From NCBI GenBank assembly GCA_023245335.1, contig JAHFKK010000001.1, forward strand, positions 17,918 through 81,917: 64,000 nt of DNA, given 5' to 3'. This document shows, in pieces, positions 8,468 through 64,000 of the stretch (the first letter of the stretch is position 1; every line of letters begins with the position of its first letter). This DNA comes from Candidatus Gottesmanbacteria bacterium. GTDB lineage: Bacteria; Patescibacteriota; Microgenomatia; UBA10105; UBA927. Below the pieces are notes generated by a model. That model did not search any database, was not told where the DNA came from, and saw only the letters and a list, made by a program, of their open reading frames with translations. The position numbers were made by a program, and so were the translations under genes.

Positions 8468-8477
8468 AACCCTGCGT

Positions 8478-8510
8478 TCTTCTTCATGGCTTTTTAGCCA
8501 CGAGAAGAAG
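8478..8510. terminator. Imperfect hairpin between convergent LRR and methyltransferase genes (possible bidirectional terminator)
   Basis: CTTCTTC(A)TGGC - TTTTTA loop - GCCA(CGA)GAAGAAG. It lies in the 16-nt gap between stop codons at 8465..8467 (+) and 8484..8486 (-). Confidence 0.3.
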
Positions 8511-29963: not shown

Positions 29964-29966
29964 TCT

Positions 29967-32501: not shown

Positions 32502-33417
32502 CCGACGGCTTATACTTATCGTTTTCCTGGGCATCGGCATAGGAAGCTTGGTACTCGCGGCCGTCGGACTCAAACCCTACCCGTCCCGGGCGGACGTGGT
32601 TATTTTTTCCCCGCATCCGGATGATTCTGTCTTATGCTGCGCTGGGGTTATAGAGCGGTCTCTAGCGGAGCATAAACGCGTATTGGTCGTCAACATAACA
32701 AACGGAGATGCGTATCCGCTTGCCGCTTCGCGGTTATTTGCAAAGCCGGAAAAACAGCTCACGCCCAAAGATATGATACGGTTGGCTATCGTACGTCAAA
32801 AAGAAGATATAAACGCTCTAAATACTCTTGGTTTAGACACTCAAAACATCATCTATTTAGCCTATCCGGATGGTGGGCTACCCGTTCTTTACCAGAGAGA
32901 TACGAAACCATATGTGAATCTATACACGCAAAAGTATGCAACGTATCGCGCAGCAATACGTGATTATCACTCCTCCATAAGTCCCATTCCCGCTGTATAT
33001 ACGAAGCCGTACGCCGTCGCCGACATATCCGAAATTATTCGACGGGCCAAACCCACGGAAATCTACACGACCGGAGACCACGACACCGCACCCGATCACG
33101 CCGTCGTCTACTTGCTGGTACGCGATGCAATAGCCCAAGTCGGATATACCGGAAAACTATTTACCACGGTCATCCACGCACCGAGTTGGCCGTCTCCGGA
33201 TGCTATCACACCCCGACAAGCCTTCCTGCCGATTGACATAGCCTATGGCTTATGGCAATCTACCGGCCTCCCCTGGCCACCGCCGGTACGCATCCCGATG
33301 ACAACCCAACAAGCGGAGAAAAAACGTATCGCGCTTTCGAAGTACCGCACGCAACTCATCCCCGGAGAACTTCCCCTCTCCTCTTTTGTGAAAAACGAAG
33401 AAATTTTTTGGCCTTAA
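32494..33417 (+). CDS. PIG-L/LmbE-family N-acetylglucosaminyl deacetylase with N-terminal membrane anchor
   Basis: VVIFSPHPDDSVLCCAGVI...VVNITNGD motif of the LmbE/PIG-L family. The ATGAATGA junction with the upstream gene suggests the start at 32494; the longer ORF begins at 32434. Confidence 0.75.
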   Translation: MNDRRLILIVFLGIGIGSLVLAAVGLKPYPSRADVVIFSPHPDDSVLCCAGVIERSLAEHKRVLVVNITNGDAYPLAASRLFAKPEKQLTPKDMIRLAIVRQKEDINALNTLGLDTQNIIYLAYPDGGLPVLYQRDTKPYVNLYTQKYATYRAAIRDYHSSISPIPAVYTKPYAVADISEIIRRAKPTEIYTTGDHDTAPDHAVVYLLVRDAIAQVGYTGKLFTTVIHAPSWPSPDAITPRQAFLPIDIAYGLWQSTGLPWPPPVRIPMTTQQAEKKRIALSKYRTQLIPGELPLSSFVKNEEIFWP

Positions 33418-33453: not shown

Positions 33454-36400
33454 TCATTTCTTTATCAACCAACCGCGGGCTTCGGCGAAACGATAGATCG
33501 GGAGTGCAATATAAGGAACAACCATGCCGATAGCGAACGCGGTGAAATCCTTAAAATCAAAAATATTTGTAGGTCTTAAGCGATAAAAAACGTATAGTTT
33601 TGCAGCAATAAACGCTGCAGTCGTAAATGGAATAAGGGCTAGTAGCTGTATAAGGCGCCTTTTGTTCAAATTAGGGTATAAGGCATCGACAGAAAGCTGG
33701 AAGAAGCCACCAAGCGCTATACCAGTCCCCAACCATCCAAGATTTTGCCTTAAAAAGGAAAAATTAAGATGTGCTAACACGGGAGCAAGATTCGCAATCT
33801 GTTGTGTAACGTTCTTATATATAGCGCTGGGTATACTCTCTATTGTTTCCCCGAGTTTATAGAACGCATCTCCCACAATAAGTGAGCTAACCGAAAGATC
33901 TGCTATGTCTTTTATCAACGATTTTGGTTTTGTATTTGAATTATTCTTAAGAAGTTCGTTAATGCGGGCTGTCAGCATGGGGCGGAGCTGGTCGGCGGTC
34001 ATGTTCGGGCTGTTTTCGAGGAGCGCCTGGTAGGCTTGGGTCTTTTCTACCGCTGCCACGAGCTGATCGACAGTAACCGGCTTCCCCTCTTGCTTTGCCG
34101 CAATCTGCTGTAGAGTTTGGATCGTATCTGCGGTCACAATGGCTTGGATTTGGGAATTAAGCTGCCCGTTCTGACCAGTAATTGACTGACTGTTATTCTC
34201 TCCAGGCCGCGTTAAAAACGCTACCCACTCCTGTGCGGTACCATGGGCTAGTAACGTTTGGTAACGTGGATCTGTACGCGGGGTTTTATACAGTCTATCT
34301 AAATCTAACTTATTCAATACGTTCCGTATCGCCTGCAATCCTACCTGCAAGTTTTCTCCCGATGGTGTATCCGCTGCGTTATGATAAATGAGTAAAAATA
34401 TCGTCGCGCCCTCCGAGTAATGATTCTGTTTGTCTATAAACAAACCGAATCGTTCAAAACGGATATTTTGAAACTCGTGAATATCTTCATCATTTAAGCC
34501 AAGTATCTGCGGCTGTCTTTGTGCCACTTCTGCGAAAAGCTGTTCCATCAGAACCGAAAACCCTTCACTAATCGCATCACTAACCTGTGATCCCACACCG
34601 CTTCCTCGCACACCTTTATCTGGACTTACAATCTGTTCAAAAATCGCGTGACCCAACTCGTGAATCATTGTTTCTACATCAAACACCTTCCTCTTTACCT
34701 TTTGGTGAGTCGAGGATTCCGTATATTCGTTCAGCGCAGCTAACCCGACATGTTCAAACGGCGTCGCTGAAATAATATCAATTTCGTGATTCGCATAGGA
34801 AGCATTCGGATCCTGGATTCCCCCTTCGTGAGGTATTTCCAATAAATCTCCGGGCTCATACTCATTAATCTTGATCACTTTCGGATCTATATATACTTCA
34901 GGAAAGAACCGCTGGTATGCAGTATTAGCAATTTTATACATTCCCACGACATACTGTGCCTTTGCATAGCGCCGAGCCGCATTCCAAACCGTCGTGAGGA
35001 TATAAGTCGGATCATTAAGTGGGTTACTGAGAGCCCATGTCGATTTCCCGAAGAAGACGCGGAATGTAATCCGCGCGAGATTGTTATAGACGTAAAAAAA
35101 TTGATCATATCGATCCAGGGAGGTATTCGTCATTCCAGTATCAAAAAAATTTCTCAAATACGCCGTTAAAGCTGCAATCTGCCCCGCGTCAAGCGTTCCT
35201 TTTGCAGCTGTTATCGCATGGTCGATAAATTCCGGAATCTCTGGCGGCATTTTCGCCTGATGCTGAATCCTCCACTCAAGAGGCTGACGCAAAAAATCTA
35301 TTATTTGGTCATTCATCATGAGCACAAATAATTCTGATCTCAGGGCCGATGATGAATATAATAAATGAACTACTGTATCTCTCGAGAGAGTGTTGGAAAA
35401 ATCAAATTGTCCCATTTCGAAGGCGATGGGTAATAATTCCGGATCCACGGAATGGTCCATAATGGACCACAACCGCTGCAAATCCTCTTGTGATACCTTG
35501 GGGAACATTTGGCGGAAAGCATTTTCATCAAGCAGATTTTCATTTGTATATTGCGCAATATGTAGTAAGCCCCCGTCTGAATATATTTGTGTGAAGATCT
35601 GTTTCATACGCGTGACTGAGGATATTAGATTATTCGGTAATGGCGTTGTAATTTGATTTTGCATTGAGTTATCACGATTATCGGCATTTACTGACTTAAT
35701 ATCGGATTGTAATGTCTCATCATTATTCACAATATTTCCGATTACGTGTCCACTCAAGCCCAGTTGAATTGTTTCATCTCGAGTTATATGCGGTATTATG
35801 GTTATTTGTGGACCGCTTCCCCGCTCACTCGGACCGCCGAAGTGGATAGCATTCCGGATCCTCTGCATCATCTCTCCCTCCCCCTGCCACAAATTCCTCC
35901 CCCGCCCGATCACCAAGCTGCTTGCCTTTTGCGTATAATGCCAAACCCACACGACTGAGCCGACACCGGTGGACATCAGGGACTTGAGAAACGTGCGGCC
36001 GACAAACGAACAGCCGCCGCCCAAATTTGCACCGTTTGAGGCAGCATATACGCGAGAGACTAATAGGTTGTATGTATAGCACTGATCATTATTTAACGTC
36101 TCTTTCATCGCCTCATACGCTGCTTTAAGGTCCTTCCCGGTTCGAATAGCGGAAGGAATAGCCTTCTCCAAAAATTTTGCCTGTGCGGCTACCTGTGCTT
36201 GGGCTTCCGGCTGTGCCGAAAGGATGGCGGCCTGACGGATTTTCTGATATCGTATTTCCGCGTTCATTGCGGCAAAAAGAGGGAGAAGAATGGCGTTTTG
36301 CGCCTCCGTAGACCGACGCAGGTAATTGGTGTTTGTGAATAATATTCCGAATTCACGGCTTGATAAAACCGCGTCAAATATTTCATCATTTGTATGTATC

Positions 36401-39400
36401 CGAATATCTTTTGTACTAGGTGAAATTGTTATACCCTCAACCGCCTTGGATATCACCGGCTCGAGTCGGTTATAGGCATCCCAAAGTACATAGTAACCCG
36501 AAAGATTCTTATTCTTGGAAAACGACGATTTTTGAGCATCAATACTATACTTACCCGACTCGACTGACGGACTCGTGGCAAATTGATTTTTCCGAAGCCT
36601 GCGCACCGTCCTTTTCCCATCTGCCAGCGTCACGTCATACAGAATAAGGGAGCCCTCGTTATATGGCTCGATCGCAGTCACGATCCCCGGCACCATTGTC
36701 CCATTCCCTTGCCCGACAAGGACAACGTCTTCAATTGCAATGCCCTCCGGCGTCGGAAGGTTTCGTTTCGTTATTGACCAAAGCCCGCGAATCGGTGCCG
36801 TTATGACTCCAATAAATCCCTTATTCGATTTATTGAGAATAGAATCGACACCCACCACTGCCTGACCAGTAAGGTAATCTTTCATCCATTTCCAATTCCA
36901 CTCCCACGCAATCGGTTTTTTCCACGTCCATGGCTTCCAACCGCCGGCAGTAAAGCGCTGCCAGTCTGTTTCGTAGAGAGGAAGCGTAACGCGGGCAATC
37001 TGTCGGGGGAATAGAAGCGGTGTCAATAACCTGGAACCAATCCATCCATATACGTTATGTATCGGTGTTGCGTTACGGATAAAATCCGGTAAACTGCGAT
37101 ACGTAAAATCCGCAGCGTCTAATACGTCAAATACCATCTGACCCACCTTCGCCTCATCCATCTTCCAGAAGGGAGATACCAGCTCGCCGCCTGACCGGAT
37201 GATGGAAACTACACCGTTTGCCACAAGTTCTCGGAACGATGTCGTCAATTGATCACTGAAAGTCTGAATGCTTGTATTTATATCGTCTCTGCGAGCGGCA
37301 ACCCACTGTGGAATTAGTCTCCACCAAACAGTATTCGTGGCTGGTACACTGGGACGGACAAACAATCGCAAATTTTCCTCCGCAGTTATGCTATATGTAT
37401 TCGTATCCGGCCTAGTAGACGCGTTCATCTGCTGGAATAGAGCTTGTGTCGGCAGCGGCTGAGGCCGAAGCTCCTCTTTCATTACACTAGGTTGATTAGA
37501 GTTTAGAATTCCTAAACGGGTTAACATATTTCTCACTGCGTTCCCTAGTCTTTGCCATAGTTGAGTAAGTAATGTCGAATTAGTTGTAGGCGAAGCCCTT
37601 ACGGACTGTTCTACTGGAAACACATATACTTTGGCAGCAGAATTGTACTGTCTGACGGTATCTGTTGCTTCGATATTCGGGCCATACACTAACCGTGCGC
37701 CATTTTGTAAAGTCGTCTGGATAAAGTTAGATCCGTGCAGATATCCCCAAAGTTGCGCGGAAAACGATGCCGAAAATTTCTTGAGTTGTGGGGCGTTGGT
37801 TGGTGATATTTTGGCATAGACACGCGGCGCTTCCAAAAGAAATCTCCTGGATGCCATCACGAACGCACGCGCTGTCTCCTGATCCGGTTGTCCTGATTGC
37901 GGGAGCGTCGCTATAACCCGAAGCAGTTCTAACCCGGCATCGGTATAGAGCTGCTTATATTCTTCATCGGTAGTTAAGCTTGACCGCAATGACGCAAATA
38001 TTCCCTGAAAATTTCGTATCGAAAGATCTAGCTGTAATATTTGCAGCCTGAGCGCTTTCCATAACTCATCATTCGTCGCGTGTTGTGTAACTGTTCCCCT
38101 CTGTTCTTTCTCAAATTCGATAGCCGGAATCCCCTCTGAGGCAAGCTGAAAAAATGGAAACAGGAAGTTCACCTGCTGGAGCGTTTCATAATGACTCGCT
38201 ACATTCGAATTTTTGGCGAATATATTCCAAAGCAGTCGTATTTTTTGTTGATCGGGAGGGATGCTTAAAAAATCCATATACATGGCTTTTGATACGAGAA
38301 CGGCTTCCACATCCTGATCACTAAACAATTCAGAGTGCCCGCCATATGTTTTTGTTTTATATTCATCATTGGCAAACATATCCGTAATCTCCGCATAAAG
38401 CTTTTGTGCCGTATCGCTCAGCTTCAGATTGGCCCGAAGGGGGTGAACACTATCAACGATGAGGAAAATATCGGTGTCATTTGGTATGGGTCCGGTCACC
38501 GTGCTGCCGTATACCACTTCTCTGGGGTTGGTAATAGCACCTGCTATCTCTAACTCCCGTACTGCGCCATGAAGCGAAGCTAACTTTTGCTGAAGTACTC
38601 GTGGTTGATTTGCAAATAGCCTGATGTCTGTCGTTCCCTGCCGTAAATTTCCCGCCCTGCCCGTAACTACCTGCACCGCCTCCCCAGCCTGCTGCCATAG
38701 ATTCAGGACCAATCCCACAGGTTTCTGCCCATAGTGCCATACCCAAACTATCGAACCAATGCCGGTAGACATAATGGATTTAAGGAACGCGCGGCCGGCA
38801 AACGAACATCCACCATCTGGGTTTACCCCGCTTCCAGCTGCGTAAACGTGCGGCACCAATGAGTTATAGGCATAACACTGATCATTTGCTATAACAGTGA
38901 GAAGTAAATCAGGGAGATTTTGCTTCGGCGTGACCGCCGCGCGATCAGCTTGAATCGTATTGATGGTAAGTCTGGAAGAGCTTGCCGGGTTAAACGGAGG
39001 ACGGGATTTGAGTATCAACGCCTCCGGACCGTTTGTTTTGAGATACGTAGCCAAATCGGTAAGATACGTATTCCCACCTTGTGTTAGCGCGATTGAGGTA
39101 TCGTCTTTTATAATCCAATTAGACGTGGGATCATCCGACTTGGCTTGCTCTCGTGAAAATCCGTTCACTGCAATCCAATCCCCCGCCTGCTTCAGTGTAG
39201 GTGCGCCCTGCCCCGTTGATTTATATAGCAAGATTCTATTCCCTGTTGGAAGTTCTAATTCCAAAAAATCTCTATCTGACACTAGCTGTCTATCTAATAC
39301 TGCAACGTTCGCGGGATAAAACGGTACCCCGTTCAACCCGTTATTTCCGGTCACTTTTTGTTGAAGATTCGCGAGTACCTCTGTGGCAACCTGATCCGAC

Positions 39401-42400
39401 GGTACATTGATTCTCCACCGTGCCACTATCGTCCCCTTGTATGGTGCGACCGGTTCTGTCACACCGGTATAGAAGTTACTTGGGTTATACCCTTCTCCCT
39501 TTATTAAAATGGTAAAACTGGGATCTTCGGCGGCTAACGATATGTTTGAATACCCGAATAATCGTGCTTGTTCCGTGATTGCCAGTGGTGCATTTTTCAG
39601 TATAAGAAATCCGTTCAGTTCGAGAGTCCTTTGCGCCTCCGCCAAAATATCTGGAAGTGTCGCTATTGTTACATCCGAAGCGATCACTGCACCGACACTA
39701 TTATCGGGAAATGGTAAGTTTGTCCCGCTATCTACGAAATTCAATGGATGCGTGGCGCCAACAAAATCACCTAAAGCGGTTCCAGCATACGGACTTGATT
39801 TGGCGGGGACCATCTGGGAACTTGATACTGTCTTACTGAATCCTACGCCATCAACCGCTTGTCCGGTAATATCTATATACAGACCACGGGGCGGATGCAT
39901 GTTTGCTGCGAATTCCACAATATCCACTACATTCTGCGGTATCGTGAGTAGCGGTTGAATGAGAGTCTTCTCGACGGACATCGACGACACATTCAATACG
40001 CCTGTCGGCTGCGGCTTGGGCGGATTTTCTGTCACCAATACACCCTCCTCACGCGATGTATTGGTAAGATACCGCTGCATGGCGGCCATGAATATCGCTT
40101 TCACCCGAGCCTCATTTTCCGCATGCACTAATGGAGCACCGGGCGGCTCGTTGGCGGGATTCGCATACAGTACCGTAATCTCCAGATCTTCCGGATTGGT
40201 CATATCCAGCTTCCATGATCGGATGGTACCGCGAGTCGAGAAAGGATCCAAGAAGCTAAATACGCCGTCTCCGGACAGATTGTCTGCCACCATGCCCTGT
40301 ATAGTTTCCCGCCAGTCCGCCTGAGCTAAATCATTTTCCGCCGCGCCAAACGCCTCAGTGAACTGCGTCTGACCTATGAGACGGCCGTCTGAAACAATGC
40401 CGAGATCCTTTCCGACCACCGTCGCACGTACATCGTACGAGATCCCATCGCGCACTTGATATATTCCGGCAAGCGATCTCGAAATTTGATTGATCAGCGC
40501 CTGCGCTTCTTGCGGGCTACCGACAATCGTTAGCTCGAAATCTCCGCCTTTTCTGAGGATGTCATACCAGGCAGCCGACCCCGTCTCTCCCATGTGGTTA
40601 GCCACAGAAAGCCTATGAAACATCTCTTTGATAAACGCGTTCCCTGCCGCATCGCCATAGGTATCATTGATAAGCTTCAATATTCCCGGCACACTGACGT
40701 GGAGTAGATATACTGACTTCCCGTTTGACGAAGCCTTCGTGAGTCGGTCAGTTAACGTACGGAACGCATGATCGAGGTAGTCCTGACGGTAGAGAAACGA
40801 CTCCATGTTCTCCTGTGCGGCTTCGGTAAAAAGTACCGGATCAAGGAGTGCCTCCTCGATAAACAGCTCGTATTTCGTCCTCACTGCCCACGGTATTTTA
40901 TCCAGGGCGGCAAAAAAATCAGCAAGTTCCGGGTGTATGGCGATGACTCTACTCCGCTGTAGACCCGCAGGTAACGGCTCGCTACGGTCCAGTAGTTCGG
41001 CCCATTCGTCAGCGGCTCCCGGGAGCGCCCGTACACGGGCCTGGTCATAGGCTACCGTTCCGCCTTTGACACCATATAGGGCAAATACTCCGCGTAGTTT
41101 AGCGTTCAGCTCGCTCACAATATCCCCCAGTGGCGTACGCGAAACAATCGCTAACGTATCCCCGTTTACCCGTATATCCCAAGTCGTGAGATTGTGCGAT
41201 TTTTGCAAATCGATAATCGTTTGAGCAATGTCATGTATGAGGACATCTCCGGTGACGCCGTATGGCTTCGCCCCGGTTTGATTTGCGCTGTACACGTCTT
41301 TGATGTCGACGGTTGCCACATAGAAGTTTGCACGGACCAGGCGGGGGAAAACGAATGAGGAAAGTATAGAAATCGCATTTCTGACAGTGCCGAAATGCGA
41401 TAAGATGGTTTGTGTCCGGTCCGGAGTCGCTACGTTGCCGTTTTCCGTAATCCTTGGAGTCTTCGGAAATGTTGCACCGGCGATGTCACGATTCAATCCT
41501 GGATCCAAAAGCCGGTTGTTGGCAAATAGATTAAAAAAGTTTATTTGAGATACCGGCATACCCGCCAAATCTGTCTCAGGGTTGAGATAATAGAGTGTCT
41601 TGATGACATCTTTGACCGTCGGATCTAGGGGTGCTATTGGACCTCTCGCAGCCGGTGCGCCCGTGGGAAGCGGAATGTTTTCGGGCGCTTCCTGAACCGG
41701 TTGGACTCTGGGTTCAATACCAAATAGTGGATTAGTATATACTTTGAACCATTCTGTAGCCTTTTGTATCACTGTGTTAATCGCTACCGTTACGAATTGG
41801 GAGTTCGATAACGATTCAGGAGTGATGTCTTCCGCCGGACTCGTGTTTCCGTACCTTTCGTTCGGTAATATGACGATCGGCTCATTGAGATTAGGTATAT
41901 CTAATACATAGGTCTGGTCGTATATCGTAAACTCTGCCACGTATCGCCTCGTAAGACCTACGGCAACGGTCCGTAGCGTCGGCGCAAAGGTTGCCAGATA
42001 GGGATCCCGTTTCATCGCCGCCACAAGTGCAACCACACCGGCATCCCGCTGAGAAATAGTCCGGCTAACATCCGGTATCGCCCGAATCGCTCCACGAACA
42101 GCAGATTCGTTTGCTGCCAACTGACTAATCACTGCATCCCGCAGGCTATCCTGGTAATACGGTCCGATTTTCTGCTTCCAGACAGCTGCGGTCGGATAGT
42201 GACCGATCACGGAGTCTATAACCGGTATACCGTGCTCGTCCGCAAACGCATGCGTAGGAATTTGGTTTACGATATGATCCTGCCCGTTTTGGGTCGCGAA
42301 GATGCGCACCCGCTTCTGGGCAACCAAAGTGACCAGGGTGGTATCCCATTGGATGACCGGCTTATGTTGGAGGATGTCATACCACCGAAGCGTATACGGT

Positions 42401-45400
42401 ATATTCTGCTGATTCTGCCGGTGCACAAAATCCGCATCGGATACCGCCGGATCACGGGTAAGTCCGCTTAACCGGGTATCAACGATCAATTTATCTACCC
42501 CCAACAATTTTGCGAAAAATAAAAGCGGAACCCGTACTAATTCCGGAGTCTTAGAGTCATTGACGGTCCGATATGCCGTGCCTAACCAGGGTACGCGAGA
42601 CCACTTATCATCAAATGCCGTGATCGTATCCGGTCCCAGGAGATACGGCGATAACAAACTGAAGTCCGAATTCATGTCTTCTACTAGATTAGGGTTCGCC
42701 TTTGCGTACTCGAGGACTATTTGCGCGCCAGTCGAATGCCCCAGGAAACGAACCCGTGTTTTTCCGTTTCCGAATGCAAATGTCGCCTGATCAGCGCTAG
42801 TTGCGGTCAATGCTTTCATGAAGTCGTTAAATTGCCCAAGCATACGTTCGTATTGGTATGTACTCGATGTCCCGGCAAAACTTCCCTCTCCGCCGCCCAT
42901 GGTTGGTGCCACGGCTATCTGGCGAATTCCATCCGTCCCGTACGGCACAAGATCCTCGCTCATGGGTTCGGCAAATACCCTGCGGTCCGCCTGAAATCCA
43001 TGCTGGGCAACGATGACTTCCGTCGCCCGTTCTATGCGTGTCTGTGCTTCGTCACGAAGTTGGTCGGGAGATACGTCCGCAAGTCTCGATCGATCGCCCG
43101 GAGTCAGCTTCGCCATCCACAAAACCGGTGTGTATTTGGCGCCGTAAAATGATGGATTCTTCACGGGCTGATACCCGGAAACATACAACATATCGCCTTC
43201 TACCCGCGCTACCCCTACGAACTGATGTTTGGCATCACTCGGACCGGCTTTCACCGCCTGTGCTAGATCCTGTCCCAAGCGATCCGGCAAGTTGTACTGC
43301 CGTGCCGTCCACCACGTCCCGACATAAGTTGTAATCTGCTGTATGAGGGGGGTTACGCTGTTTAATGCTGCGGCAATCGACCCAAGCCACCCAGGTAACA
43401 CGTGAATAAAAGATGACGGTAACAAGCTCAGTGGTCCTTGATTTGATAAGTGAGAGGCCTTAAGCGGTGGATTAACTTCTGCAGGTTTTTCATCAACGCC
43501 GTTTAGATAGTTTAGATATTCAAGTTTTGGATACATGTGCTTACTTACGAAGTAATAGTTATCCTTATACGGCGCGTTATATAGAGCCGCCAAATTGATA
43601 TCGTTCGGAAAAACACTTTCCTGAGTAAACCGCAAAAGCCCCTGAACATCACCCGGTAATGTCTGCACTGGAGACGACAATAATTTGCCGTTCGCATCGC
43701 GGATGTTTATCCGCAGGCCATATGTGATAAAGGCTTGTGTGCGCAAAATACCAAAATTCACACTAACATCTGTTATTTCCGCAATGGGATATGCTCCATC
43801 CTGAAAGGTTGCACCACTCTTACTTTTATAACTTAGCCACGACCCGACACCCTCCGTATACTCTTTTACATTCCCATCTGGAGTAAGAGACAATACATTT
43901 TCAATGCCGGAGCTAATGGTGCGCACATCTGGTCGTGATTGGGCGTATGTCAATACTGCTCCCTGCAACAATTTCCCCAACCCGGCGTTGCGGGTGTCCG
44001 GAGAAACGTAAATAAATTGTGTATAAAGATCCGATTTTTCTTTGTTGTACTCTCCTCCAACAAATCCAAGGGCTTTTCCACTCAAATCAGATATAACTAA
44101 TGTAAAAAATCCTGGTTTCGCTTGGTCAACCCATTGTCTGACTTCTGTTAACTGAGCAAAGGCTTCCGGAACCTTTGCAGAAACGGTGACTCTGTATTGC
44201 CCGGAGGAGTCAGCCATAAACGTATTATTCAAAGGTACGGTCGGATTTATTACTGAAACCGCCTGCGGCGGCGGTTGGGATTGAGGCTCGATATTTTCCG
44301 TTACTGACAGTTGCGGCGTCTTTAGGTATTGCCGTATCGGCGAAAGCGCCTGTAGATTATCCTTGTGCTGGATGACATCTTCAAACCCCACGACATGACT
44401 ATTTAACCACTCGCGCACGGTCACCCCGTCCGGATAGCGTCCCCTATCTTCAAGTCCAAATCCACCAAGATGATTCCAGGCATCGGAAAGAATCCATTGC
44501 TTAAATAGCTCCGCATCTTTGCGTGTACCAACGATATAGAGCAGGTAATCCGGTGGAATAAAGGTCTGATTCAACTTTTCATCAGTCACTTGGATATCCG
44601 ACTCTGATACTCCCTCAGGCAAAACCGTGACAACGGCATATCCGTTGAAAAAATCTCCTGCTGAGGCACCGATTGTGGACTTGCCAAAACCACCTAGCCA
44701 TAGCGGCTCATGTTCATTGGTACGGAGCCCAAAATCTAAAATATTGCGCAGTCCCTGGGCAAATTCGCCTATATTAGTCGCATTTATCGTAACGGAATGA
44801 CCGTTAATTTCGGCGTTTTCCAATATTTGACGCACTTCTTCGCTCAAAGAGCGAAACGTACTATCTCTGATATTAGCCGTCATCGTTTTTTCTAAGGCCC
44901 GGTACCCTGCCGAGTCTATCCAATACGACTCGCCCTTTCCGTTCGATAAGGTTAGCGGATGCGCACGAAGTCCCGTGGTAAATCCGAGTTGACCATAGGT
45001 TGCTGACTGGGCTATCATCGGACTCAAATGGGTATATTGCAGCCCGCCAACCGTCATTTCTTGAGGATTGATAGAAGGATTGACATGCAGAAGTAATTTG
45101 CCAATCGTCGGTTGCTCTGTTGGACTCAGCGCCTGGACAATCGTCACTACTGGTGGATCTACCAACATTGCCGCAAACTTCCCCGTCGCAACAATTACGT
45201 CCCCGACTGCACAATCATTTAATCCTGCAACATTGTTTCCCTGTGCATAGACGGGAGGAATAAGCCTCATCGCACTCTCACCACAGGCTTTTTCCCGTAA
45301 TGCTTCCGCTTGCGTTGTGATTGTCTTCTTCGCAGGATCCGTGATCGGTGCATATACTGCTTTTAATGATTTATCCGTCTGGACAAGTGGTACGACAATC

Positions 45401-54400: not shown

Positions 54401-57400
54401 TTTGCCAGTTGAGTTCTCTGTGCCGTCATGCGCTGCAATGGATTTACATCGTTTTGCGGGATCAGATATCCGTTCATCTCGTCCACCGTCATGTCGCGGT
54501 GTATACCTAACTCATCGGCCAGAATCTGCGCATTCCATTGGAAATCATCCAGGGTTTGTAACTGCTCGGGAGATGCGTTTGGAATGGGTTTCGGTGTTTC
54601 CTTCCCTATCCGGATCGGTGTGAGGGCGAGTTGGTTTGTGGAAGTTATGTTTACTCGGGCGACAACATCGCGTCCCAAAAGAATCTGCGTTCCGTCTCGT
54701 AGTATTCTTCCTTCCACGGGGACAACTATCAAAGGAAAATCCTCCATGCCGGGATATACTATCTGCGTGCTCGTTCCCGGACTGAGTTCCGCGTCATCTA
54801 CCATCCATGTCTTCGATTCGAGGTTAAAGTATATTACCGCGTGTTTTCCCAATACCGTTGGGATGGTTGCAGGATCAAACTGTATCGCATTATCTACATC
54901 CGTACCCAAACTAATCCAACTGCTCTTAGTAAAATGTTCAGTCGGATAAAACACCCGAACAGTTCCCACATTTACTGCAGCCGCGGTTTTCCCCTTCCCC
55001 GTCCGGCGCCAGACCCGGAATGCATTATCAGGTTCTTCCTTCACAAATCCCGCTGCTTGGTAAAATGCATTGAGCCGGGCCGATAAATCGACGAGGTTGT
55101 CGCCTGCTTTATATCCCGCCGGAGACGGTATGACGCGTACTCCCACACTCCCGGTATTGAGATTTTTGGCGGCTTCCAATAGGCGGGTACCGATATTTAC
55201 CCCCTGATAACTAGGATCCACAAACAGTACGCTTATCTCATCCAAATCGCCCGTAGGAGAAGTCTGTACCGCGACAAATCCGGCAACCGCACCGTTATAT
55301 TCGTCTCTTGCGATAAGGATCGCAGCGTTATTGAGTGATGCCGCCAACGGGAGATTCGTGATACCAGGATTTTCTTTTTGAACGCGCGCAAGCATCCCGA
55401 CGACGTCATCCGCTGTCCCTTGTTGTACCGTCACATCGACCGCAGTAAACAAGTTACGAAGTGGCGTGACCATGTCCAAATATTGTTGATCAGTGATGCT
55501 CTCGTCTCTCTGTAAATTATCGACTTCACGACCCAATTGGTTCACCCGGATTTGTCTCGCTGCAGCGCGCTCGGTGGCCGCACTCTTCGTATTGCCTACG
55601 CCGGTATATGCTTCCGCGAGCATTTGGTGGATATACATCTGGGCCGCAGAAAAGATGAGCGGGTTACTGTCCGTACGCTTGCCGTATTCCGCATTTACTG
55701 CCGTGAGCGTCGTCGTCAGATCCTGTATTGCCTGATCAAATTCTCCGTTGGCAAGCCGTGCGTCAATTGCCGAAAATTGTCGGATGAGGCTTGCGACATA
55801 CTTTCCGCAGTCGTCACAATTTTGGTAATATTCGTCCGGTTGACCATCCGAAGTTTTGGGAAGTATGGCTGCCCGTTGCAGCATCGCAACGATGACTGCG
55901 GTCAAAAATGACGGCTGCGACGGGGACTCCGGGATGCTCGCCGGGAGGTAGATAACCGGGCTATCCTCCTCCGGCATCATTTGAGCTACCTCACGGATAA
56001 TGTTCGCTTCACGCTGGGCGGCTGGATTTTTCCTGAGTATTGCCTCAAGCGTTTTGAGGTCCTGGAGGCCTCGTTGATAGTTCGCGGTACCGGGCTTCAT
56101 TAACGCTGACTCAAGTGACGTAAGGAATTCATGCATATTCTCGGTAGGCCCGACGGGAATACCGACTTGCGCAAGTGCAGTTGTCGCCTCTTTGATTGCC
56201 GCTCTCGTCTCTTGAGTATTCTCGAAAGGTGCCTCCACAGTCTCTACCGCGTTCACGATCACGCGGCGTACGCTCTGCACAAAATCCGGGGATTCTATGT
56301 GCTTGTTTTCCGACGCCAACGTATCCCGCACCAACTCCAATGCGCCTAAAAGTTTCGTGGCTGCCTGCGTATCGGTTATGGCATCCACCTGGCCTGTTAC
56401 CTCAGGACGCGTGAGGGCAAGAAACACCGAGAACACAGTAGGGTTAGTTTCCGGTATCGTGACGCCGGCATTGGTAAACGCCCGGACGACCTGACCCGTG
56501 AGCGTCCGTAGGTCTGCTTCACTCATATCCCCGCGTACAATATGGCCATTTATTATCGCCATTTCCCGTACCACTTCGAGCATCACGCTTTTTATCTGAT
56601 TAATTGCCGCAAGCAGCTCAAGCGTCACTGCAGCCGTCGTTTGAGGAGTAACGATGATAGGGGCTGGGCTTTCTTCTTCCGCAGCAAATTCACTTATTGT
56701 TGTCGTATTGTCTACGCTTACCGGGACTAAATGCAGCTGCTTTTCCAGATTATCTATCTCGACAGTTAGACTTTGTAACACGGCAGTGATACGACCAAGG
56801 GTAAATACGCTCTGTGCATCCGATTTATCCGCAAGACTGAGTTGATAATCGGATAGTATCGACGCTAATTCCTGAGTGACCTCCAACTCACTTATTGGCT
56901 CCAAACCTTGTGTCAGCTGCCGTACTACCGGATCTATGTCGGCGGCTATCGCGGGGTCAAAAGTGGCGCTTCCCATATCCGCCACCAACTGTGCTGCTAT
57001 GGATAGCAACTGTTGAACGGGTCGTTGCGGCAATGGATTCACTTCATTTTGGATAAACGATCCCACTATGTTTGCCTCATACTCGGAAGAGGCAACTACT
57101 TCAACCGATGCAACATGAGACAACATCGGTGCCACTTCTGCTATTGCGCGATACGTTGCTGCTAGACTGTCCGAAATATCGACTCCGCCTTTTCCGGATC
57201 CCATAATCGGCAATGCTATCGTCTGAACCCCTGCAGCATCCGCCTCCAAAAGGGCATTCTTTATGCTCTGATAAATCGTATCGGTAGTCATAGGTATACG
57301 GCCCGCATAGGTTGTATCTGGAATGTAGCCTGTCGCTATAGCCTGAATAATGTATTTAATTTTTGTCTGAGAAAAACCCCGAGCTATCTGCACTACTGCA

Positions 57401-60400
57401 GAACCTATATCAAACGGCCCGTGATTTTCCACAAGCGCAACCGCGTCTACTTGAGCCAAACTGACTGAATTCGCTGGAACAAGCCGGAGATTTGCGTATG
57501 CCGGGTGATTTTGCCAATATGAGTCCGCTGACGAAACGACTCCGGATGCACGGCTTATTCTTCCTGCAGTGCCCGATACCATTGCTAAAAAGTTATTTGC
57601 AGAATTAACGACAGCGTCAACGTCAGCTTTACCTATATTTCCTACCGCTACACCGATCTCAATAGGCGTCCCGTTCTGACGGGACAGTGAATGACTCAAG
57701 CGAACGACAGGAATCTTTTCATCAACCAGTATTTCCCATGCAGTCCGAAGCGCATTTTCTTTATCTTTAAGGGTAACCCCAGCTGGCAGCCGTCCTTCAA
57801 TTCGGCTTGCTACCTCTGCATCAACAGCAACCTGGGGCGCGTTCTTCCAACTGTCTTCCGAAATAACCGCTTTATATGTTTCATATACATCGCGAATAAT
57901 TGGATTTGTTAACTTATTTTGTATCGCATTAGCTGTTACAGGACCCGTTGGGATTTCTGTATCAAGCGTCAAGAGCATAGGATCCTGTAAATACGTTTCT
58001 ATATCGTGGCGTTCGGTCAGCAAACTCTGTAACTGCGTTTCAATTTCCCGAATGACAAATTTCGCTTGCTCTATCTTTGAAGTTAAACTTTGATCAATAC
58101 TCTTTATTTGATTTCGTAGCGCAATGACACGGGCGTCAGCCTGATCAACACTCCCTTGTATGTCGGCAAGTTGCTCTTCGGCTCTCCGCAAATCAGCTTC
58201 TGCTTTTGCCTGTTGTTGTACGAGATCAGTTTCATTACTTTGAACCGCCGCCACGACCTGCGTTCCTTGCTTATCAATACGTAGAAGGCTCATATCCCGC
58301 TCTCTCCTAGCGAGGTAACTGAAATACGTTATTTGTTCTTGCTCAAACGCATTCCTTCCTGCAAAATTCATCCAACTTCCATGATCCTGTGAGCCACGAT
58401 TCAATCCCATCTCCTGATTCAGCCGGATGACCTCTTCTGCTACTTGATTATCATCCATTCGATCCAATCTGACCGTCGGTAGACTATCCAACACGTGTGC
58501 CCCCGTCAAATATTTACGCAAATACACATGGAAATCATCTTTCTTCTCACCCGAATTTTGCGGCCCGTTATATACTATCTTTCTCCCGTATTTTGATGAC
58601 AGTTCTTCGGCGATAATCGTACCTATGCCGACAAACCGCCTGGAAGCGCGGAGTGCATTGCTTTTGTCATGGAGAAAATATGCGGCAGACTCACCCATGT
58701 ATTCAAGTGCAGTTTTCCCAGTCGAAGCTACTAAAATCTGTATATTATTCTGATGAGCTAATGATTGAATTTGTGCAAATTCTGCTCGTTGCGCTACAAA
58801 CTCTGGCACGATCATTGCGGAAATCGCCTCGGTAGGAACAATGGCAGAGGTTTCTCGTACGGTCAGATCTGCATTCAGACCCCGTAATTTCGCCATTGCT
58901 CTTATGCGGTCTTCGTACGTCTTAAGCTCATCAGGACGAACGCCGATATTAAGCTGGGCCCCTTTGTTTGGATCTATCTGCGCTTTACCGAGCCAGTCCA
59001 ACGATCGCTGGCGGGTAGCTTCGACGAGCGCCTTTGTCCCACGACTCAGGACGTCATTGAACCCGCCCCAAAGAGCTTCCGCTTTGGATCTGCCATTCAC
59101 ACCGGAAAGATCCAATACGTTCCATGGATGTTTTATCCCGGGCTTCCACTTATCTGACGTACCCGGCATGGTTACCTGATCATCAAAAACCGTCGCATCC
59201 AAACCTTTGCCAATAAGCGTGATGAACCCATAATCAGATCCGATGCCACCGACTTTAAAATTCACTCCCCGTTTGTAGTCATATGAATAAATAATTTTGC
59301 TTGTAAGAATTCCAAGCAAAGACTGTAAGTCAGTTCTGTGTGTCGGTAACACCAATGAAAAAATATTTGTTTCTTTGTCGTTTCTGAAGCTCTCTTCACG
59401 ATAGACTCTGGCCATTTCACGATTATATGTATCAAGAGTTTGATACAAACTCCGTTCTCGCGAACTTTTTGTTTGATCACGAAGATCCACATAATATTCC
59501 CGTAAGGCTTCGTGACGCGCAGCTAACAAATCACTACTTGTAGAAGACGTGAGTAACGCGTTATTTTTCTTCACACCGGCTATATCCGCTCTGTTTAAGG
59601 CATATAAAGCATTTATGTCGTCTTCTGAAGTAATGGATTTAGCAAAATCCTGGACATATCTTCTCCATGCCGCATCTACTGATTCTCCCGGTTTGGCGCC
59701 AAACACCTCCCGAGCTTTTTGTTCATCGGAATAATTTTTATAGACAGCGATATTCCCTAACACTTCATGATACTGAACGAGGAAAAGAATACGTTGTTGC
59801 CGATCCGAAGATACACTAAGCTCATCAAGAATCGTTTTTGTGAGTCTGGTTGATTCTACTACGTGATTCGGCTCCCTCCCTCGTTTTTGCGGATCAAGTC
59901 CTAATCTATTGGCCTCCTGTGCTCCTACTTTACCGATATCATGAAGTTGAGCAGCCAGTATGAGATCTTCTGCGTTGTATCCCTCGGGGATAATTAAATT
60001 CCTTACGACCGCATCCGTGTGGCCTCCGATCGTAAAGTCGTGAAAACTATGTTGCGCCTCATCTTTAATTTGGGCCCAACGACGTGCGTACGTCGGGGAA
60101 GTATTCAAAGCCGCTTGAGCGGCTGCCACATCAGTATCGGTAACTGGTCGCGTTGTGGGGATATCAGACCGCGCTCTCAATCCGCACGATACACAATCAA
60201 TCCGCTCCTTTAGTTGGGATAACTGGCTCGTAAATGCGCTTACGAGTTGTGACAATCTTGATTTATCCTTCTCAAGGAGGGCCTTTTGATCCTGTAGAGC
60301 TTTTTGCTGATTCACTTCGCTCAAAAGATCTCGCTCTAATTGTTGTTTCTGATTTGAACGTATCACTTGAGCTTCAAAATCACTCTGCTGTGTCTTCAAC

Positions 60401-63400
60401 CGTTGTAGTTCCTGCTGAGCCCATGTTTGTTTTCCTTTCACGGTTCCGAGGTTATTTTGCTCTTGGACAAGTAATAATTGCCGTATATCTATGACCATCT
60501 CATTGACCTGACGTACATATCCGGCTACCACGACAACTGGCTGGCTCTCTAAAAGTTTTGCTGCAGAAAATGCTTCACGCAGATTCTCCTGCTGTTTCTG
60601 TCGGATTTCCTGCATGAGACCCTGAACGACTATTTGGGCATTTTGGACATTAACTCCGACGCTTCGGGTATCAGGCGTTATTCTTAACGGCTGGCTTGAT
60701 GTAACTGCGGGCTGTGATGGATTAGTACGGCTAACAGGTCCTACTGGCTGTACAACGGGCTGTGGTTGTTGAGGTTGAGCCAATCTCGGAGCAAGTGAGG
60801 TATTTAATTCGTCTATCACCGCCAATGTTGCGCCCACATTGGACAGATTGGCAATCGATGAGCGAATGAGGGTCAAAGCTTCTGTAATGCGTCGTGCCTG
60901 ATCAGAAGTCATTTGATCAATAGGCGTCTCTTGTAGCTCGACAAGCGCGACTTCTACATCACTCCGTTCCTTCTCTGTCACATTCACCTGCGGTTGTTCA
61001 AACGCCAACCGTATCTGCTGAACTTTTTGATTGAGATCCGGCAGTGACGCAGTCTGTTGCGGCTGAGCAGTATTTACCCGTAGCACGTTTCCAATTTGTG
61101 ACTGAAGTTGTTGGGATTGACCGTTGCGGAAATACAATCCTGCCCGGACGCCGTCATTTATTGCCGTTGCGATCCAGTTTACCCAAGCGGGCATCACAAA
61201 CAGGACGCGCTGGGTGACATATCTCCCCCACGCCGCGCCGTCTTGTCCCGCAGGGATCTGGAAAAAGTCAACGATTCCCTGCAGGGCCGGAACCGCCGCG
61301 ATAGCTTTGGCTGTCTCCAGGTAGGAAGCAGGATTGTTTCTATACCATACCGCCTGAACAAGATCGAATCCGAATACAACGGGCAAACGGATAAACCACG
61401 GAATCAGCGTACCCAGATTAAGTACGATACGACTCGTCGCATACCGGGTGGCTCCCCGTGCCCCACGGCCGAGCGGTCCCCGTGATATGTCGGCGAGCCC
61501 CGCTCCGAATGACTGCGACGGCGCTACTGCCGGCGCAGCGGTTACGGCCGGTGGTGAAACCGGTCGGGCGCCGGGGGGCACGGGCGTTACGCCGAGCACG
61601 ACATCTCCCTGCTTCACCCAACCGACTTTTTGCCCGTCGGCACGAACTACATACCACTGCGAGTTTGCAGGGTTACTGTCCGGAGACCATAACTGCAGTG
61701 TCGCGTCATCGGCCTGTGCCACCCCGTGTTCATCCGTATAGATGACCCGGACGACGGAATTGTTTTTCATTTCCTGCCCTGCGTAGAGCGTTACCGTGTT
61801 GACCCCCAATTGATTGGCCGACAGTGCTTGCGGCGTTGTTGTCGATTGCGTCCGTGGCTGTCCGTAGAAATTCACTTTTCGGAATACCTGATTCTTGACC
61901 ACCTGGCGATAAATATTGAAGACCTCGATGGCTCCGACCACGATCGGACGGACAAAAATACCGCCGGGGATAAATGATGCCGCATACATCGGCAGCCGTG
62001 CCGCGGCAAATCGTCCAAGGGTACCGGGAACATTTGCTTCGGTATTCAAGAATACCGTATCCCCCACGCCCTTCAAGAAGTCCGACACGCCGCGCAGGAA
62101 GTTCGTAAACGCGTCATGTCTAGTGGAATCAATAATTCTCGGCAAAGAAATCGGAGAAGATCCCGACGCGCGAAATGCGTACATAACACCCTCGACCACC
62201 GCATGTCCCCCGTCAAAGATCAACGAGATTATAGATCCTCCGAACATCCGCAGCGCCGTCCGGCCGACATATCGCCCCACCCCGCGCCAGCCCTGACCCC
62301 AGAAAAACGCGTCCCACGTGTCATGAAATCCTTGCGAGAACGTCGTCGTCTGCGGGTTTATCGGACCAGCCGGTTGAGCGGAAGGAATCGTCGCGGCAAT
62401 CGGTGTCGCCGGTTTATACGTCCACTTCCATTTCCATGGCGTATAGGTTGACAGTGAAAATATCGCTTTGTATCCGCCGCCATTCGTGAAACGGGTTACG
62501 TCGTTATGAATCATCGGCCCACCGACGATGCTTCCGATTATGGACGCGGTAACCGCCGCGGGACCTATGCCGAGCCCTATCAACCGCAGAACCCATGAAC
62601 CGGTTCCCAAAAGCGCAATCGGCGCGAGAAATACATGAAGCGCCGGTATGAGACCCACTATGACTCCTGCTATCGTAATGAGTGCCGGGATGACGATGAC
62701 GGCAAACGTGACAAGCGTGGGAACGATATAGAGTCCCACTGCAACAGCCCGCGATATGAGGAATCCAACGGTGTTATTTTTGAGTGTGGCATTTACAAGC
62801 GCATTCGGGATAAATCCAAACGTTCTTCCTTCCATACTCCAGTAGTCCGGCAACTCGTACCCATGGGTGTGAAGCGGCGACGCCCTGCCGGATACGTGCT
62901 CTACGTAGTGCTGCCATACACGGAATCCGTCCCAGTAAAGTAACGTGTGATTCCCGATCCGGCTAAAGACATAGGAAACGGTACTAAAAAACGCCGATAT
63001 GGGATTCCATTGCGGATCTCCTATCCCTAAAAATCTCGCGTTCGCGATGTCTTCCACAAATCCTTTATCACTGCCCGCCAAAATATTTTTGAGTGTTTGT
63101 ACCGGTTGTCCGGAGGTATCTTTCGTCAAAAAGTCCGTATACTTGGTCGCGATAAAGCGCACCAACGGTAGGAAAAGCTTCTGAACGGGATGCGTGGCGC
63201 TATTTCTGGCCATACTGTCTGCGACCGTCTGAAAATCAAGTAACATGAGGTTTTGGAACCATACGGCTCGTGCCAATCTATACGGGATGGCTTCGGCGAC
63301 AATCCGGACCAAATCAATGCCGGCTATGGTAAGCGTCACGGGAAGTCCCGCGCCGGGAATAGCAAGCGGCGCTGCATACCGAAGAACCGCACTGACAATA

Positions 63401-64000: not shown

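Follow-up and report, generated by a model that had tools for sequence, protein, structure and literature searches.

Giant multi-enzyme proteins that lie mostly outside the cytoplasm have been described in other ultra-small symbionts or predators, and among these closest analogues of the gene reported here are the SPEARE proteins of Nanohaloarchaeota (DPANN). In the passages of PMC6642349 devoted to them, these proteins reach 8,553 amino acids (aa) and take up a few percent of a genome of about 1 Mb; they are membrane-anchored with a variable extracytoplasmic part, have a proposed role at the surface of the host, into which they would open a route, and are defined by serine protease, laminin-G/adhesion and (type III) restriction-endonuclease domains. 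Giant surface proteins of up to 4,163 aa were reported for Vampirococcus (PMC8080830), and giant proteins are also known from the Omnitrophota, a small-celled lineage for which an interaction with a host or prey was proposed (bioRxiv 10.1101/2023.11.21.568195); Patescibacteria were not listed among the phyla rich in genes for more than 10,000 aa in the latter study (West-Roberts et al.). Polymorphic toxins replace their cassettes by recombination and carry junction (pre-toxin, e.g. PT-VENN) domains and built-in peptidases (Zhang et al. 2012, PMC3482391). The present analysis concerns a giant open reading frame (ORF) in a 64,000-nucleotide stretch, hereafter the window, of a Candidatus Gottesmanbacteria bacterium (assembly GCA_023245335.1, contig JAHFKK010000001.1, positions 17,918 to 81,917), and its comparison with related loci and with these systems.

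33454..64000, minus strand: giant ORF, with a frame open to the window edge (relatives are as long as 12,720 + 1,349 aa)

The giant ORF is a single, genuine gene with over 10,000 codons. Counted from the first in-window ATG (63906), it occupies 33454..63906 of the minus strand and encodes 10,150 aa, with its stop at 33454. No stop was found in frame from 63906 up to base 63999, which adds 31 open codons and brings the protein to more than 10,181 aa; since the frame is open up to the window edge, the true start is beyond position 64000 and the N-terminus lies outside the window. No ribosome-binding site was evident by eye before the ATG at 63906. Two contigs that carry the locus in relatives are about 1 Mb long, so that the gene (more than 30.5 kb) accounts for about 3% of such a genome.

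The gene was placed in a family by means of its downstream neighbours, which are as follows.

28101..33417, plus strand: conserved locus-marking neighbours, all convergent with the giant gene (Pfam; orthologues beside the giants of relatives L001 and L002, at 46-55% identity, and in 26 genome loci of the candidate phyla radiation, CPR)
28101-29963, plus strand: NPCBM-domain protein with a weak GT87-like match (Pfam)
29967-32501, plus strand: 844-aa protein, function not assigned (only a weak DUF7937 match)
32434-33417, plus strand: PIG-L deacetylase (Pfam), next gene to the giant gene and convergent with it

Alignment of the 844-aa protein, for which an exact look-up returned no record, gave the 26 loci among species-representative genomes, at 42-63% identity except for L028 (31%); their titles named Gottesmanbacteria, Woesebacteria, Microgenomates or Patescibacteria metagenome-assembled genomes (MAGs), and some were uninformative. 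The loci L007, L009-L012, L014, L016, L020-L022, L027, L029 and L030 (42-55% identity) come from third-party-annotated MAGs titled 'uncultured Gammaproteobacteria', which are probably mislabelled. The 844-aa protein has long invariant stretches across Microgenomates, almost always adjoins a giant gene, and is the best marker of the locus. Sufficient DNA was available at approximately 18 loci, and 14-15 of them have a frame, convergent with the 844-aa gene, that stays open for at least 1,300-3,300 aa and runs off the locus. An exhaustive HMMER search with aa 8250-9449 against 1.84 billion representatives returned five partial matches only, the contigs of which keep the same neighbourhood (46-55% identity for PIG-L, the NPCBM gene and the homologue of the 844-aa protein). 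Hits of the family came from the datasets JGI 3300013136, 3300013138 and 3300037810 and SRR18595301; the contig of L005 is JAKAFY010000005.1 and that of L002 is Ga0376277_0001469. The small yield suggests that gene-calling and clustering pipelines probably miss this class of gene. No relatives came from word-indexed searches, with a probably saturated ceiling of 8000 candidates, for homologues of three segments (aa 1-1500, 6877-7352 and 8001-10150), genome and metagenome scans with the N-terminal 700 aa gave none either, and no phage or viral relatives of the giant protein were found. Literature searches returned no paper on genes of more than 10,000 aa in Microgenomates. The neighbouring genes place the window in a Microgenomates chromosome (CPR, similar to Gottesmanbacteria and Woesebacteria), that of an ultra-small and probably symbiotic bacterium. 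The giant ORF is a member of a rare, locus-specific family of Microgenomates giant genes with mosaic cassettes.

The mosaic character of the family was evident from pairwise comparisons, in which the giants of relatives shared 3-30% of the available sequence in blocks of 25-45% identity, whereas the flanking genes are 45-63% identical. The sharpest case was the pair L011 and L026. Their DNA is 89% identical across the flanks and the ~640 codons at the end of the giant gene, and the similarity then stops abruptly at a breakpoint that coincides with a copy of the Cys-loop motif described below. Other enzymes were recognised in the giants of relatives, namely GNAT, GDSL/acetylxylan esterase, Fic, HAD-IIB phosphatase, LytR_cpsA_psr (LCP) and methyltransferase domains. 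The metallopeptidase-type motif HExxH was enriched in the family: 13 of the 20 fragments carry it, with 14 sites in total where 0.8 were expected (control motifs 0-2), and 10 of these 14 sites lie 100-660 aa from the C-terminal end.

Two relatives have an interrupted giant gene. That of L002 consists of a 12,720-aa ORF, a single in-frame TAG (9962-9964) and a 1,349-aa ORF in the same frame, an arrangement that could represent read-through, a true split into two genes or a fixed nonsense mutation. The TAG of L002/L003 is identical in two independent datasets (a Joint Genome Institute, or JGI, metagenome and a Logan SRA assembly), and a Cys-loop lies 66 aa before the stop. In L001 an IS1595-family transposase (5694-6398) splits the gene into parts of 1,866 and 2,097 aa. 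The same locus carries a PhdYeFM/ParE toxin-antitoxin (TA) pair (12761-13306) between the giant gene and PIG-L, and an AbiEii-family (nucleotidyltransferase toxin) gene lies between the 844-aa homologue and the NPCBM gene in L002/L003 (21758-22495); mobile conflict genes accumulate around the giant gene.

A short module with two cysteines (Cys), here called the Cys-loop, was located at three places in the giant protein.

45211..45285, minus strand: Cys-loop junction motif copy 1, aa 6208-6232, CGESAMRLIPPVYAQGNNVAGLNDC, which matches two modules in L007
38665..38886, minus strand: Cys-loop junction module copy 2, aa 8341-8414, with Cys 8344 and Cys 8367 (internal repeat; family motif)
35857..36090, minus strand: Cys-loop junction module copy 3, aa 9273-9350, with Cys 9276 and Cys 9299, where the similarity block shared with P0002/L001 ends

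Written as C-x(6-18)-[VIL][YF]A-x(3-22)-C, the motif was found in 32 copies in the 20 family fragments (55,034 aa), for which 0.46 copies were expected and the maximum in shuffled sequences was 3. Many copies have Pro or Asn-Pro-Phe in front of them and a short segment of the type R/K-A/P-P-hydrophobic behind. The literature searches gave no paper on it, and a strict DNA pattern for NPF[VI]xxVYAAD was found at three places, one of them a true motif in a long ORF (L031). Ends of similarity blocks lie within 100 aa of a Cys-loop copy in 16 of 42 cases against 7.1 expected (p ~0.0005, with ends that are not independent of each other). Copies 2 and 3 form the sole internal repeat of the giant protein (aa 8341-8414 vs 9273-9350, ~63-65% identity, a 75-aa pair in self-BLAST). 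A preliminary description of this stretch, made from the sequence alone, had taken them for two copies of a Cys/His hydrolase; the repeat is real, but the assignment gave way to the Cys-loop, because in an alignment of 27 module sequences the two Cys flanking V[YF]A were conserved and the His of VWVWHY was missing in most. A papain-like hydrolase at aa ~8341-8414 and 9273-9350 was accordingly rejected, with no peptidase family match in Pfam or NCBIfam. The third codon positions of copies 2 and 3 match at only 17 of 42 conserved residues; this synonymous saturation points to constraint on the protein following an old duplication, and it rules out recent gene conversion as the source of the repeat. 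Copy 1 of the Cys-loop (aa 6208-6232) had been overlooked in the preliminary description, as had the Pol-beta-type signature at aa 8466-8481 that is treated below.

The Cys-loops stand out against a general depletion of cysteine. The 10,150 aa of the giant protein include 11 Cys, compared with 74 among the 11,126 aa encoded by the neighbours (Fisher p 1.7e-11). For 10 of these 11, another Cys is no more than 25 aa away (null mean 0.54, maximum 7), and all Cys pairs are located between recognised modules. The N-terminal half contains 4 Cys in ~4,800 aa; the equal depletion of the two halves speaks against an ordinary cytoplasmic location for either of them. In monoderm bacteria, exported proteins typically exclude cysteine and keep the few that survive in pairs, and the pattern is a hint that the giant protein is exported. 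Most family members have 0-0.6% Cys, but L011 and L026 have ~1.3% and an ORF of L031 (3804-8057), in which one motif copy is perfect, reaches 2.5%, so that not every member of the family excludes cysteine.

Enzyme modules along the protein were judged against the curated gathering scores of Pfam, with cross-checks by NCBIfam and PDB sequence searches. They are listed from the N- to the C-terminus, together with the coiled-coil-like stretches and the CxxC pairs.

60184..60369, minus strand: coiled-coil-like stretch rich in Q, L, E and K, aa 1180-1237, ending in a CxxC at aa 1238-1241 (sequence inspection)
59557..60039, minus strand: module resembling HD phosphohydrolases, aa ~1290-1450 (Pfam HD under its cutoff, E 0.004; phrog_6931 4e-4; QLHDIGK at aa 1320)
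57817..58296, minus strand: second coiled-coil-like region, aa ~1871-2030 (weak matches to the coiled-coil families HAUS2, LmuB and adhesin A)
57070..57663, minus strand: macro (ADP-ribose-binding/hydrolase) domain, aa ~2082-2279 (Pfam Macro, NCBIfam, PDB 2dx6 3.9e-5)
55807..55818, minus strand: second CxxC pair, aa 2697-2700, between modules (from the sequence)
55042..55329, minus strand: GNAT acetyltransferase 1, aa 2860-2955 (Pfam Acetyltransf_7, 34.6 bits vs 27)
49552..49803, minus strand: J-domain-like segment, aa 4702-4785, with a ~30-aa insertion (Pfam DnaJ 25.2 bits vs 27.8, profile positions 1-26 only)
46861..47556, minus strand: class-A beta-lactamase/PBP-A-like serine hydrolase, aa ~5451-5682 (Pfam, NCBIfam, PDB 2j7v)
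43915..44151, minus strand: GNAT acetyltransferase 2, aa 6586-6664 (Pfam Acetyltransf_1, 23.8 bits vs 20.7)
41851..43278, minus strand: conserved cassette with a putative alpha/beta-hydrolase triad, aa 6877-7352 (GHSTG at aa 7056, then DHIVNQ and GHY)
40417..40809, minus strand: degenerate GGDEF-like (nucleotide-cyclase fold) module, aa ~7700-7830 (GGDFE at aa 7787; Pfam E 1.2e-3)
37444..38595, minus strand: cassette at aa 8438-8821 in which a nucleotidyltransferase signature of Pol-beta type is recognisable (YGSTVTGPIPNDTDIF, aa 8466-8481)
34537..34677, minus strand: HExxH module of zincin-like type, with HELGH at aa 9749 and a Glu ~27 aa further on as the candidate third ligand

Four modules scored above the Pfam gathering thresholds: macro, GNAT-1, Beta-lactamase2 and GNAT-2. 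All four had been named in the preliminary description, and its picture of a non-repetitive, multi-module enzymatic toolbox was borne out, the only repeat being the 75-aa Cys-loop pair. The combination of modules was not found in any characterised protein, as had been surmised, and homologues are nearly absent from public data. The macro domain (Pfam Macro at aa 2156-2248, 29.2 bits vs a cutoff of 22; NCBIfam 2.3e-10 over aa 2123-2275) has both ADP-ribose loops, VNSANN...SGTAG and LPIMGSGKGG; the assignment holds, and hydrolase activity is predicted. The acetyl-CoA motif of GNAT-1 reads QGVNIG, with one Gly replaced, and that of GNAT-2 reads RNAGLG, with R-x-x-G-x-G intact. The beta-lactamase-like cassette gave the strongest match (Pfam aa 5458-5671, 64.4 bits vs 22, E 1.2e-17; NCBIfam bla_class_A 8e-14), and its best PDB alignment was with Tll2115 (2j7v; E 3.4e-8, ~120 residues). 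The nucleophile S-x-x-K motif ASTIK (aa 5481) is identical to that of 2j7v, SDD aligns with SDN, and KIG stands for KTG; no equivalent of Glu-166 was identified by eye in the cassette. The SDD and KIG motifs and the lack of a visible Glu-166 suggest acyl-enzyme or DD-peptidase-like chemistry rather than efficient beta-lactam turnover.

Of the weaker assignments in the preliminary description, the HD domain stands in part: the Pfam match spans aa 1311-1387 and the H...HD...H...D residues are present, but the score is below the cutoff and PDB sequence searches gave no support. The J-domain-like segment also divides, since helices I-II and III are recognisable, with a typical helix III FDEAYAVLSDSTLRQTYD after the insertion, but the Pfam score falls short and the HPD tripeptide is absent from the segment, which reads ...ENLNRPFAFED... 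with the insertion placed before helix III. A Foldseek search with a low-confidence model of this segment gave J-domains for all of the top ~30 matches, none of them significant (E >= 0.18). The description of the GGDEF-like domain as degenerate proved apt: its top PDB matches are all diguanylate cyclases (E 0.006-0.011), the first metal-binding Asp is replaced by Ser, and 'FVDLAGF' of PDB 4urq aligns with 'HVSVPGI', so that the fold is probably related and the catalytic residues are lost. The alpha/beta hydrolase proposed from GHSTG stays putative: the cassette is 40-42% identical to its closest relative L005 with GHSTG and the candidate Asp and His invariant, but no profile match and no PDB match were obtained and an AlphaFold single-sequence model was unusable (predicted local distance difference test, pLDDT, 31.6). 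The nucleotidyltransferase cassette is 41-44% identical to P0001/L002, with G-S...D-x-D invariant in the three sequences, and had no profile match and none against PDB; a Pol-beta-type nucleotidyltransferase is a motif-level assignment only. The HExxH motif noted in the preliminary description gained weight from its enrichment in the family and from the fact that HELGH is the only HExxH in 10,150 aa (0.10 expected), and its only domain match was a weak one to Peptidase_M32 (E 7.8e-4). Searches with PADLOC gave only weak coiled-coil or Cas8a-like noise, and those with PHROGs gave noise or generic acetyltransferase matches. No sensor or NTPase module was found. A non-ribosomal peptide synthetase or polyketide synthase (NRPS/PKS) and a repeat adhesin were ruled out, as there are no such domains or repeats.

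Hydrophobicity scans recovered the three membrane clusters that the preliminary description had listed.

62518..62763, minus strand: hydrophobic cluster 1, aa 382-463, a continuous apolar stretch of ~80 aa (Kyte-Doolittle and Hessa-scale scans)
49351..49467, minus strand: hydrophobic cluster 2, aa 4814-4852, which forms either a single long helix or a tight hairpin (hydrophobicity scans; AlphaFold)
33490..33735, minus strand: C-terminal hydrophobic cluster 3, aa ~10058-10139, followed by the basic tail RFAEARGWLIKK (hydrophobicity scans, sequence)

Cluster 1 probably forms 3 or 4 membrane helices. Cluster 3 has a strong helix at aa 10088-10107 and two weaker segments, and it weakly resembles (23-25% identity) internal transmembrane modules located 700-800 aa before the end of L005 and L010; the membrane clusters thus seem to be movable cassettes too. 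In cluster 2, the 39 hydrophobic residues have two hydrophobicity maxima and are flanked at either end by basic residues, a pattern that suggests a hairpin with the two halves of the protein on the same side of the membrane. An AlphaFold single-sequence model shows aa 4810-4851 as one continuous helix (local pLDDT 74-87, overall 57.7), which suggests a single pass with the halves on opposite sides.

The reading that we favour, as plausible yet tentative, is that the giant protein is a largely exported, membrane-anchored and cassette-shuffled effector array at the interface between a symbiont and its host. Most of the polypeptide would be exported and held on the cell membrane at the zone of contact with the host cell. 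Envelope-directed cassettes (the PBP-A/beta-lactamase-like domain and the putative alpha/beta hydrolase here, GDSL and LCP domains in relatives) would act on the wall of the host or on a shared wall, and cassettes that need cytoplasmic substrates (HD, macro, the GNATs and the nucleotidyltransferase; Fic and HAD in relatives) would serve as effectors inside the host cytoplasm. The two-Cys loops may be disulfide-closed loops between cassettes and act as processing points, in the manner of the nicked loops of AB toxins; the invariant [VIL][YF]A core would then present what looks like a signal-peptidase-type cleavage site, and the built-in HExxH module is a candidate processing peptidase. The Cys-loops may also mark the recombination sites at which cassettes are exchanged, like the pre-toxin junction motifs of polymorphic toxins. 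A locus that is conserved and yet rewritten cassette by cassette in close relatives has the signature of conflict-driven selection. The analysis establishes the gene, most of its domains, the family with its syntenic locus and exchanged cassettes, the enrichment of the Cys-loop and HExxH motifs, and the scarcity of cysteine; export, targeting of a host, disulfides, cleavage and the part played by the peptidase are proposals built on these.

Several points weigh against this reading. The N-terminus and the upstream genes, where a signal peptide or a secretion-system region would be expected, lie outside the window, and the host dependence of the lineage is an assumption. The usual place of HD, macro, GNAT, nucleotidyltransferase and J-like modules is the cytoplasm, and the basic residues on both sides of cluster 2 fit a cytoplasmic hairpin. 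No adhesion or carbohydrate-binding domain was detected with Pfam or NCBIfam in the 10,150 aa. The bridging of the Cys pairs and the cutting of the loops are what we infer from the motif, and many CPR bacteria are thought to live without oxygen. Only ~40% of the non-independent similarity-block ends are near a Cys-loop. The insertion sequence (IS) element of L001 and the in-frame TAG of L002 suggest that the gene may be dispensable.

The first alternative is a split topology, which the preliminary description had put forward and which we regard as unlikely. Here cluster 2 would cross the membrane once, with the HD, macro, GNAT-1 and J-like modules inside the producer and the PBP-A-like domain, the Cys-loops and the later cassettes outside. 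The continuous helix in the AlphaFold model agrees with this, as do the position of the J-like domain directly before that helix, the location of all three Cys-loops and the beta-lactamase-like domain after cluster 2 (with only CxxC pairs in the N-terminal half) and the basic C-terminal tail, which fits a location inside the cell. However, the helix comes from a single-sequence model with the low overall pLDDT given above, the 39-residue stretch of cluster 2 has two maxima and basic flanks, the N-terminal half is just as poor in Cys, and GNAT-2, the nucleotidyltransferase and the GGDEF-like module would sit outside without substrates. Rather less probable still is that the protein is an extracytoplasmic scaffold directed at the producer itself, remodelling its own wall or surface glycopolymers in concert with the adjacent glycosylation cluster. 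The conserved synteny with ~33 kb of glycosyltransferase, PMT_2, YfhO, Wzy, DegT, PIG-L and NPCBM genes, the PBP-A-like domain, and the LytR_cpsA_psr and GDSL/acetylxylan-esterase domains of relatives speak for such a role; wholesale swapping between close relatives and interruption by IS elements and stop codons would be unexpected for housekeeping envelope enzymes, and the macro, HD, Fic, GNAT and nucleotidyltransferase domains have no obvious envelope substrate.

A cytoplasmic, membrane-tethered conflict or defence protein, for example one directed against phages with enzymes of TA or abortive-infection type, is very doubtful in our view. HD, macro, GNAT, nucleotidyltransferase and Fic domains recur in TA and defence systems, and the first four occur here and Fic in relatives; TA and AbiEii genes adjoin the giant gene in relatives, and rapid turnover fits a role in conflict. 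Against this, PADLOC gave nothing beyond weak noise, the Cys depletion with paired Cys and the beta-lactamase-like and LCP domains point outside the cell, and a sensor or NTPase module is lacking among the modules found. That the frame is decaying, functionless or an assembly chimera is scarcely credible. The IS insertion and the in-frame stop in relatives would fit decay, as would a codon usage that correlates only moderately with that of the neighbours (relative synonymous codon usage, r 0.65) and a GC content at third codon positions of 0.47 vs 0.53; but 30.5 kb without a stop is impossible by chance, catalytic motifs are intact in several modules, the Cys-loop copies are kept by selection at the protein level, and giants occupy the same locus in ~15 genomes.

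The favoured reading of an exported effector array can be carried further, to a new class of 'serial polymorphic effector' genes, although this extension is improbable. Such genes would encode exported polyproteins of more than 10,000 aa in which Cys-loop junctions separate the enzyme cassettes and are cleaved, either by an enzyme resembling signal peptidase or by the protein's own HExxH peptidase; the modules would stay clasped by disulfides until they reach the reducing host cytoplasm, and they would be exchanged between lineages at the junctions. If this is true, the giant gene would be the main determinant of host range and host manipulation in an uncultivated CPR group. To our knowledge, the host interaction of CPR/Patescibacteria outside Saccharibacteria is essentially unknown. 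The Cys-loop motif provides a handle for spotting such genes in fragmented metagenomes, single cassettes (PBP-A-like hydrolase, macro, GNATs) can be expressed, and the predicted cleavage and disulfide sites can be checked by metaproteomics.

The remaining 33 kb of the window consist of a chromosomal glycosylation and polysaccharide cluster with GT2, GT4, PMT_2, YfhO, Wzy, DegT, PIG-L and NPCBM genes. A prophage or plasmid origin was ruled out by these chromosomal neighbours and their conserved synteny. Two genes within the cluster are odd companions for those of sugar pathways: one on the minus strand (7043-7636) encodes a small DUF7282 protein, the other on the plus strand (7646-8467) a protein with leucine-rich repeats. 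An ORF with a SPASM iron-sulfur domain (radical-SAM maturase type; 39-656, plus strand), probably cut by the edge, lies at the window start. No tRNA or Rfam features were found within the 64-kb window. When the window is divided into 2-kb bins, all of them have a negative GC skew (about -0.03 to -0.2), independent of gene orientation, and the skew has the same sign in 25 of 26 related loci oriented alike, the exception being L028. A strand composition disparity is mentioned in the account of a complete Microgenomates genome (PMC7143001).

When the giant protein was set beside known systems, the likeness to polymorphic toxins and MARTX proteins suggested in the preliminary description held for its evolution and probably for its mode of action, and failed for membership. 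With polymorphic toxins it shares the replacement of cassettes and conflict-type enzymes; its HExxH module is a candidate for a built-in peptidase that could release modules, and the Cys-loop at similarity breaks may be comparable to a pre-toxin junction. The polarity is reversed, however, since in L011/L026, the one informative pair, the C-terminal ~640 aa are conserved and the upstream part is replaced, and there are many serial cassettes here in place of one C-terminal toxin. No RHS, filamentous-haemagglutinin, PAAR or LXG domain was detected in the visible protein with Pfam, and the Cys-loop is not PT-VENN or any described pre-toxin domain. No immunity gene was found downstream, where the next gene is the convergent PIG-L gene, or the 844-aa homologue in L005; the PhdYeFM/ParE pair downstream in L001 is not a typical immunity gene. 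MARTX toxins consist of one very large secreted polypeptide with unrelated effector enzymes in tandem, which are released by proteolysis. The giant protein likewise has several unrelated enzymes in tandem on one very large polypeptide, for which export is predicted here, but the visible protein has no glycine-rich RTX repeats (self-BLAST, Pfam, NCBIfam) and no Peptidase_C80 (no match at E <= 0.1), it has only 11 Cys, and no type I secretion or acyltransferase genes are in view, the downstream side being taken up by glycosylation genes. Membership in the MARTX family or among the classical polymorphic toxins was ruled out by the absence of these defining features.

In AB toxins (diphtheria toxin, botulinum toxin, Pseudomonas exotoxin A), disulfide-closed loops between the chains are nicked. 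The Cys-loops resemble them in having a loop of ~15-25 residues with only two nearby cysteines, a position between modules and a core like a protease site; they differ in that no sequence similarity exists, in that the motif occurs several times per protein, and in that disulfide formation and cleavage are predictions here. PBP-A (Tll2115 of Thermosynechococcus, PDB 2j7v) is the best solved relative of the beta-lactamase-like cassette, with which it has the nucleophile motif and the SDD/SDN position in common, but the alignment is confined to the ~120 residues given above, KTG is replaced by KIG, and the cassette is embedded in a giant protein rather than being a free periplasmic enzyme.

SPEARE proteins, as outlined in the portions of their description used here, share with the giant protein a very long single polypeptide, multiple enzymatic modules, membrane anchoring and an ultra-small, host-dependent organism. 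They are archaeal and the present protein is bacterial, no sequence relationship was found, the domains that define SPEARE in those portions were not detected here with Pfam or NCBIfam, and the Cys-loop motif does not appear in them. The giants of Omnitrophota are similar in reaching 10,000 aa or more and in containing several transmembrane regions (here over 10,181 codons and three hydrophobic clusters), and also in their sparse detectable domains, including GNAT and GGDEF. They differ in that no SecA_DEAD, dockerin, beta-helix, adhesion or carbohydrate-active domain was detected in the visible 10,150 aa (Pfam, NCBIfam) and in that no type II secretion neighbourhood is present on the visible side. 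As judged from domain profiles, the giant protein appears to share no signature domain with the giants of SPEARE type, Vampirococcus or Omnitrophota, which are its closest biological analogues. It belongs with the giant multi-enzyme membrane proteins of ultra-small symbionts, to which it adds two new signatures, the Cys-loop and the HExxH module.

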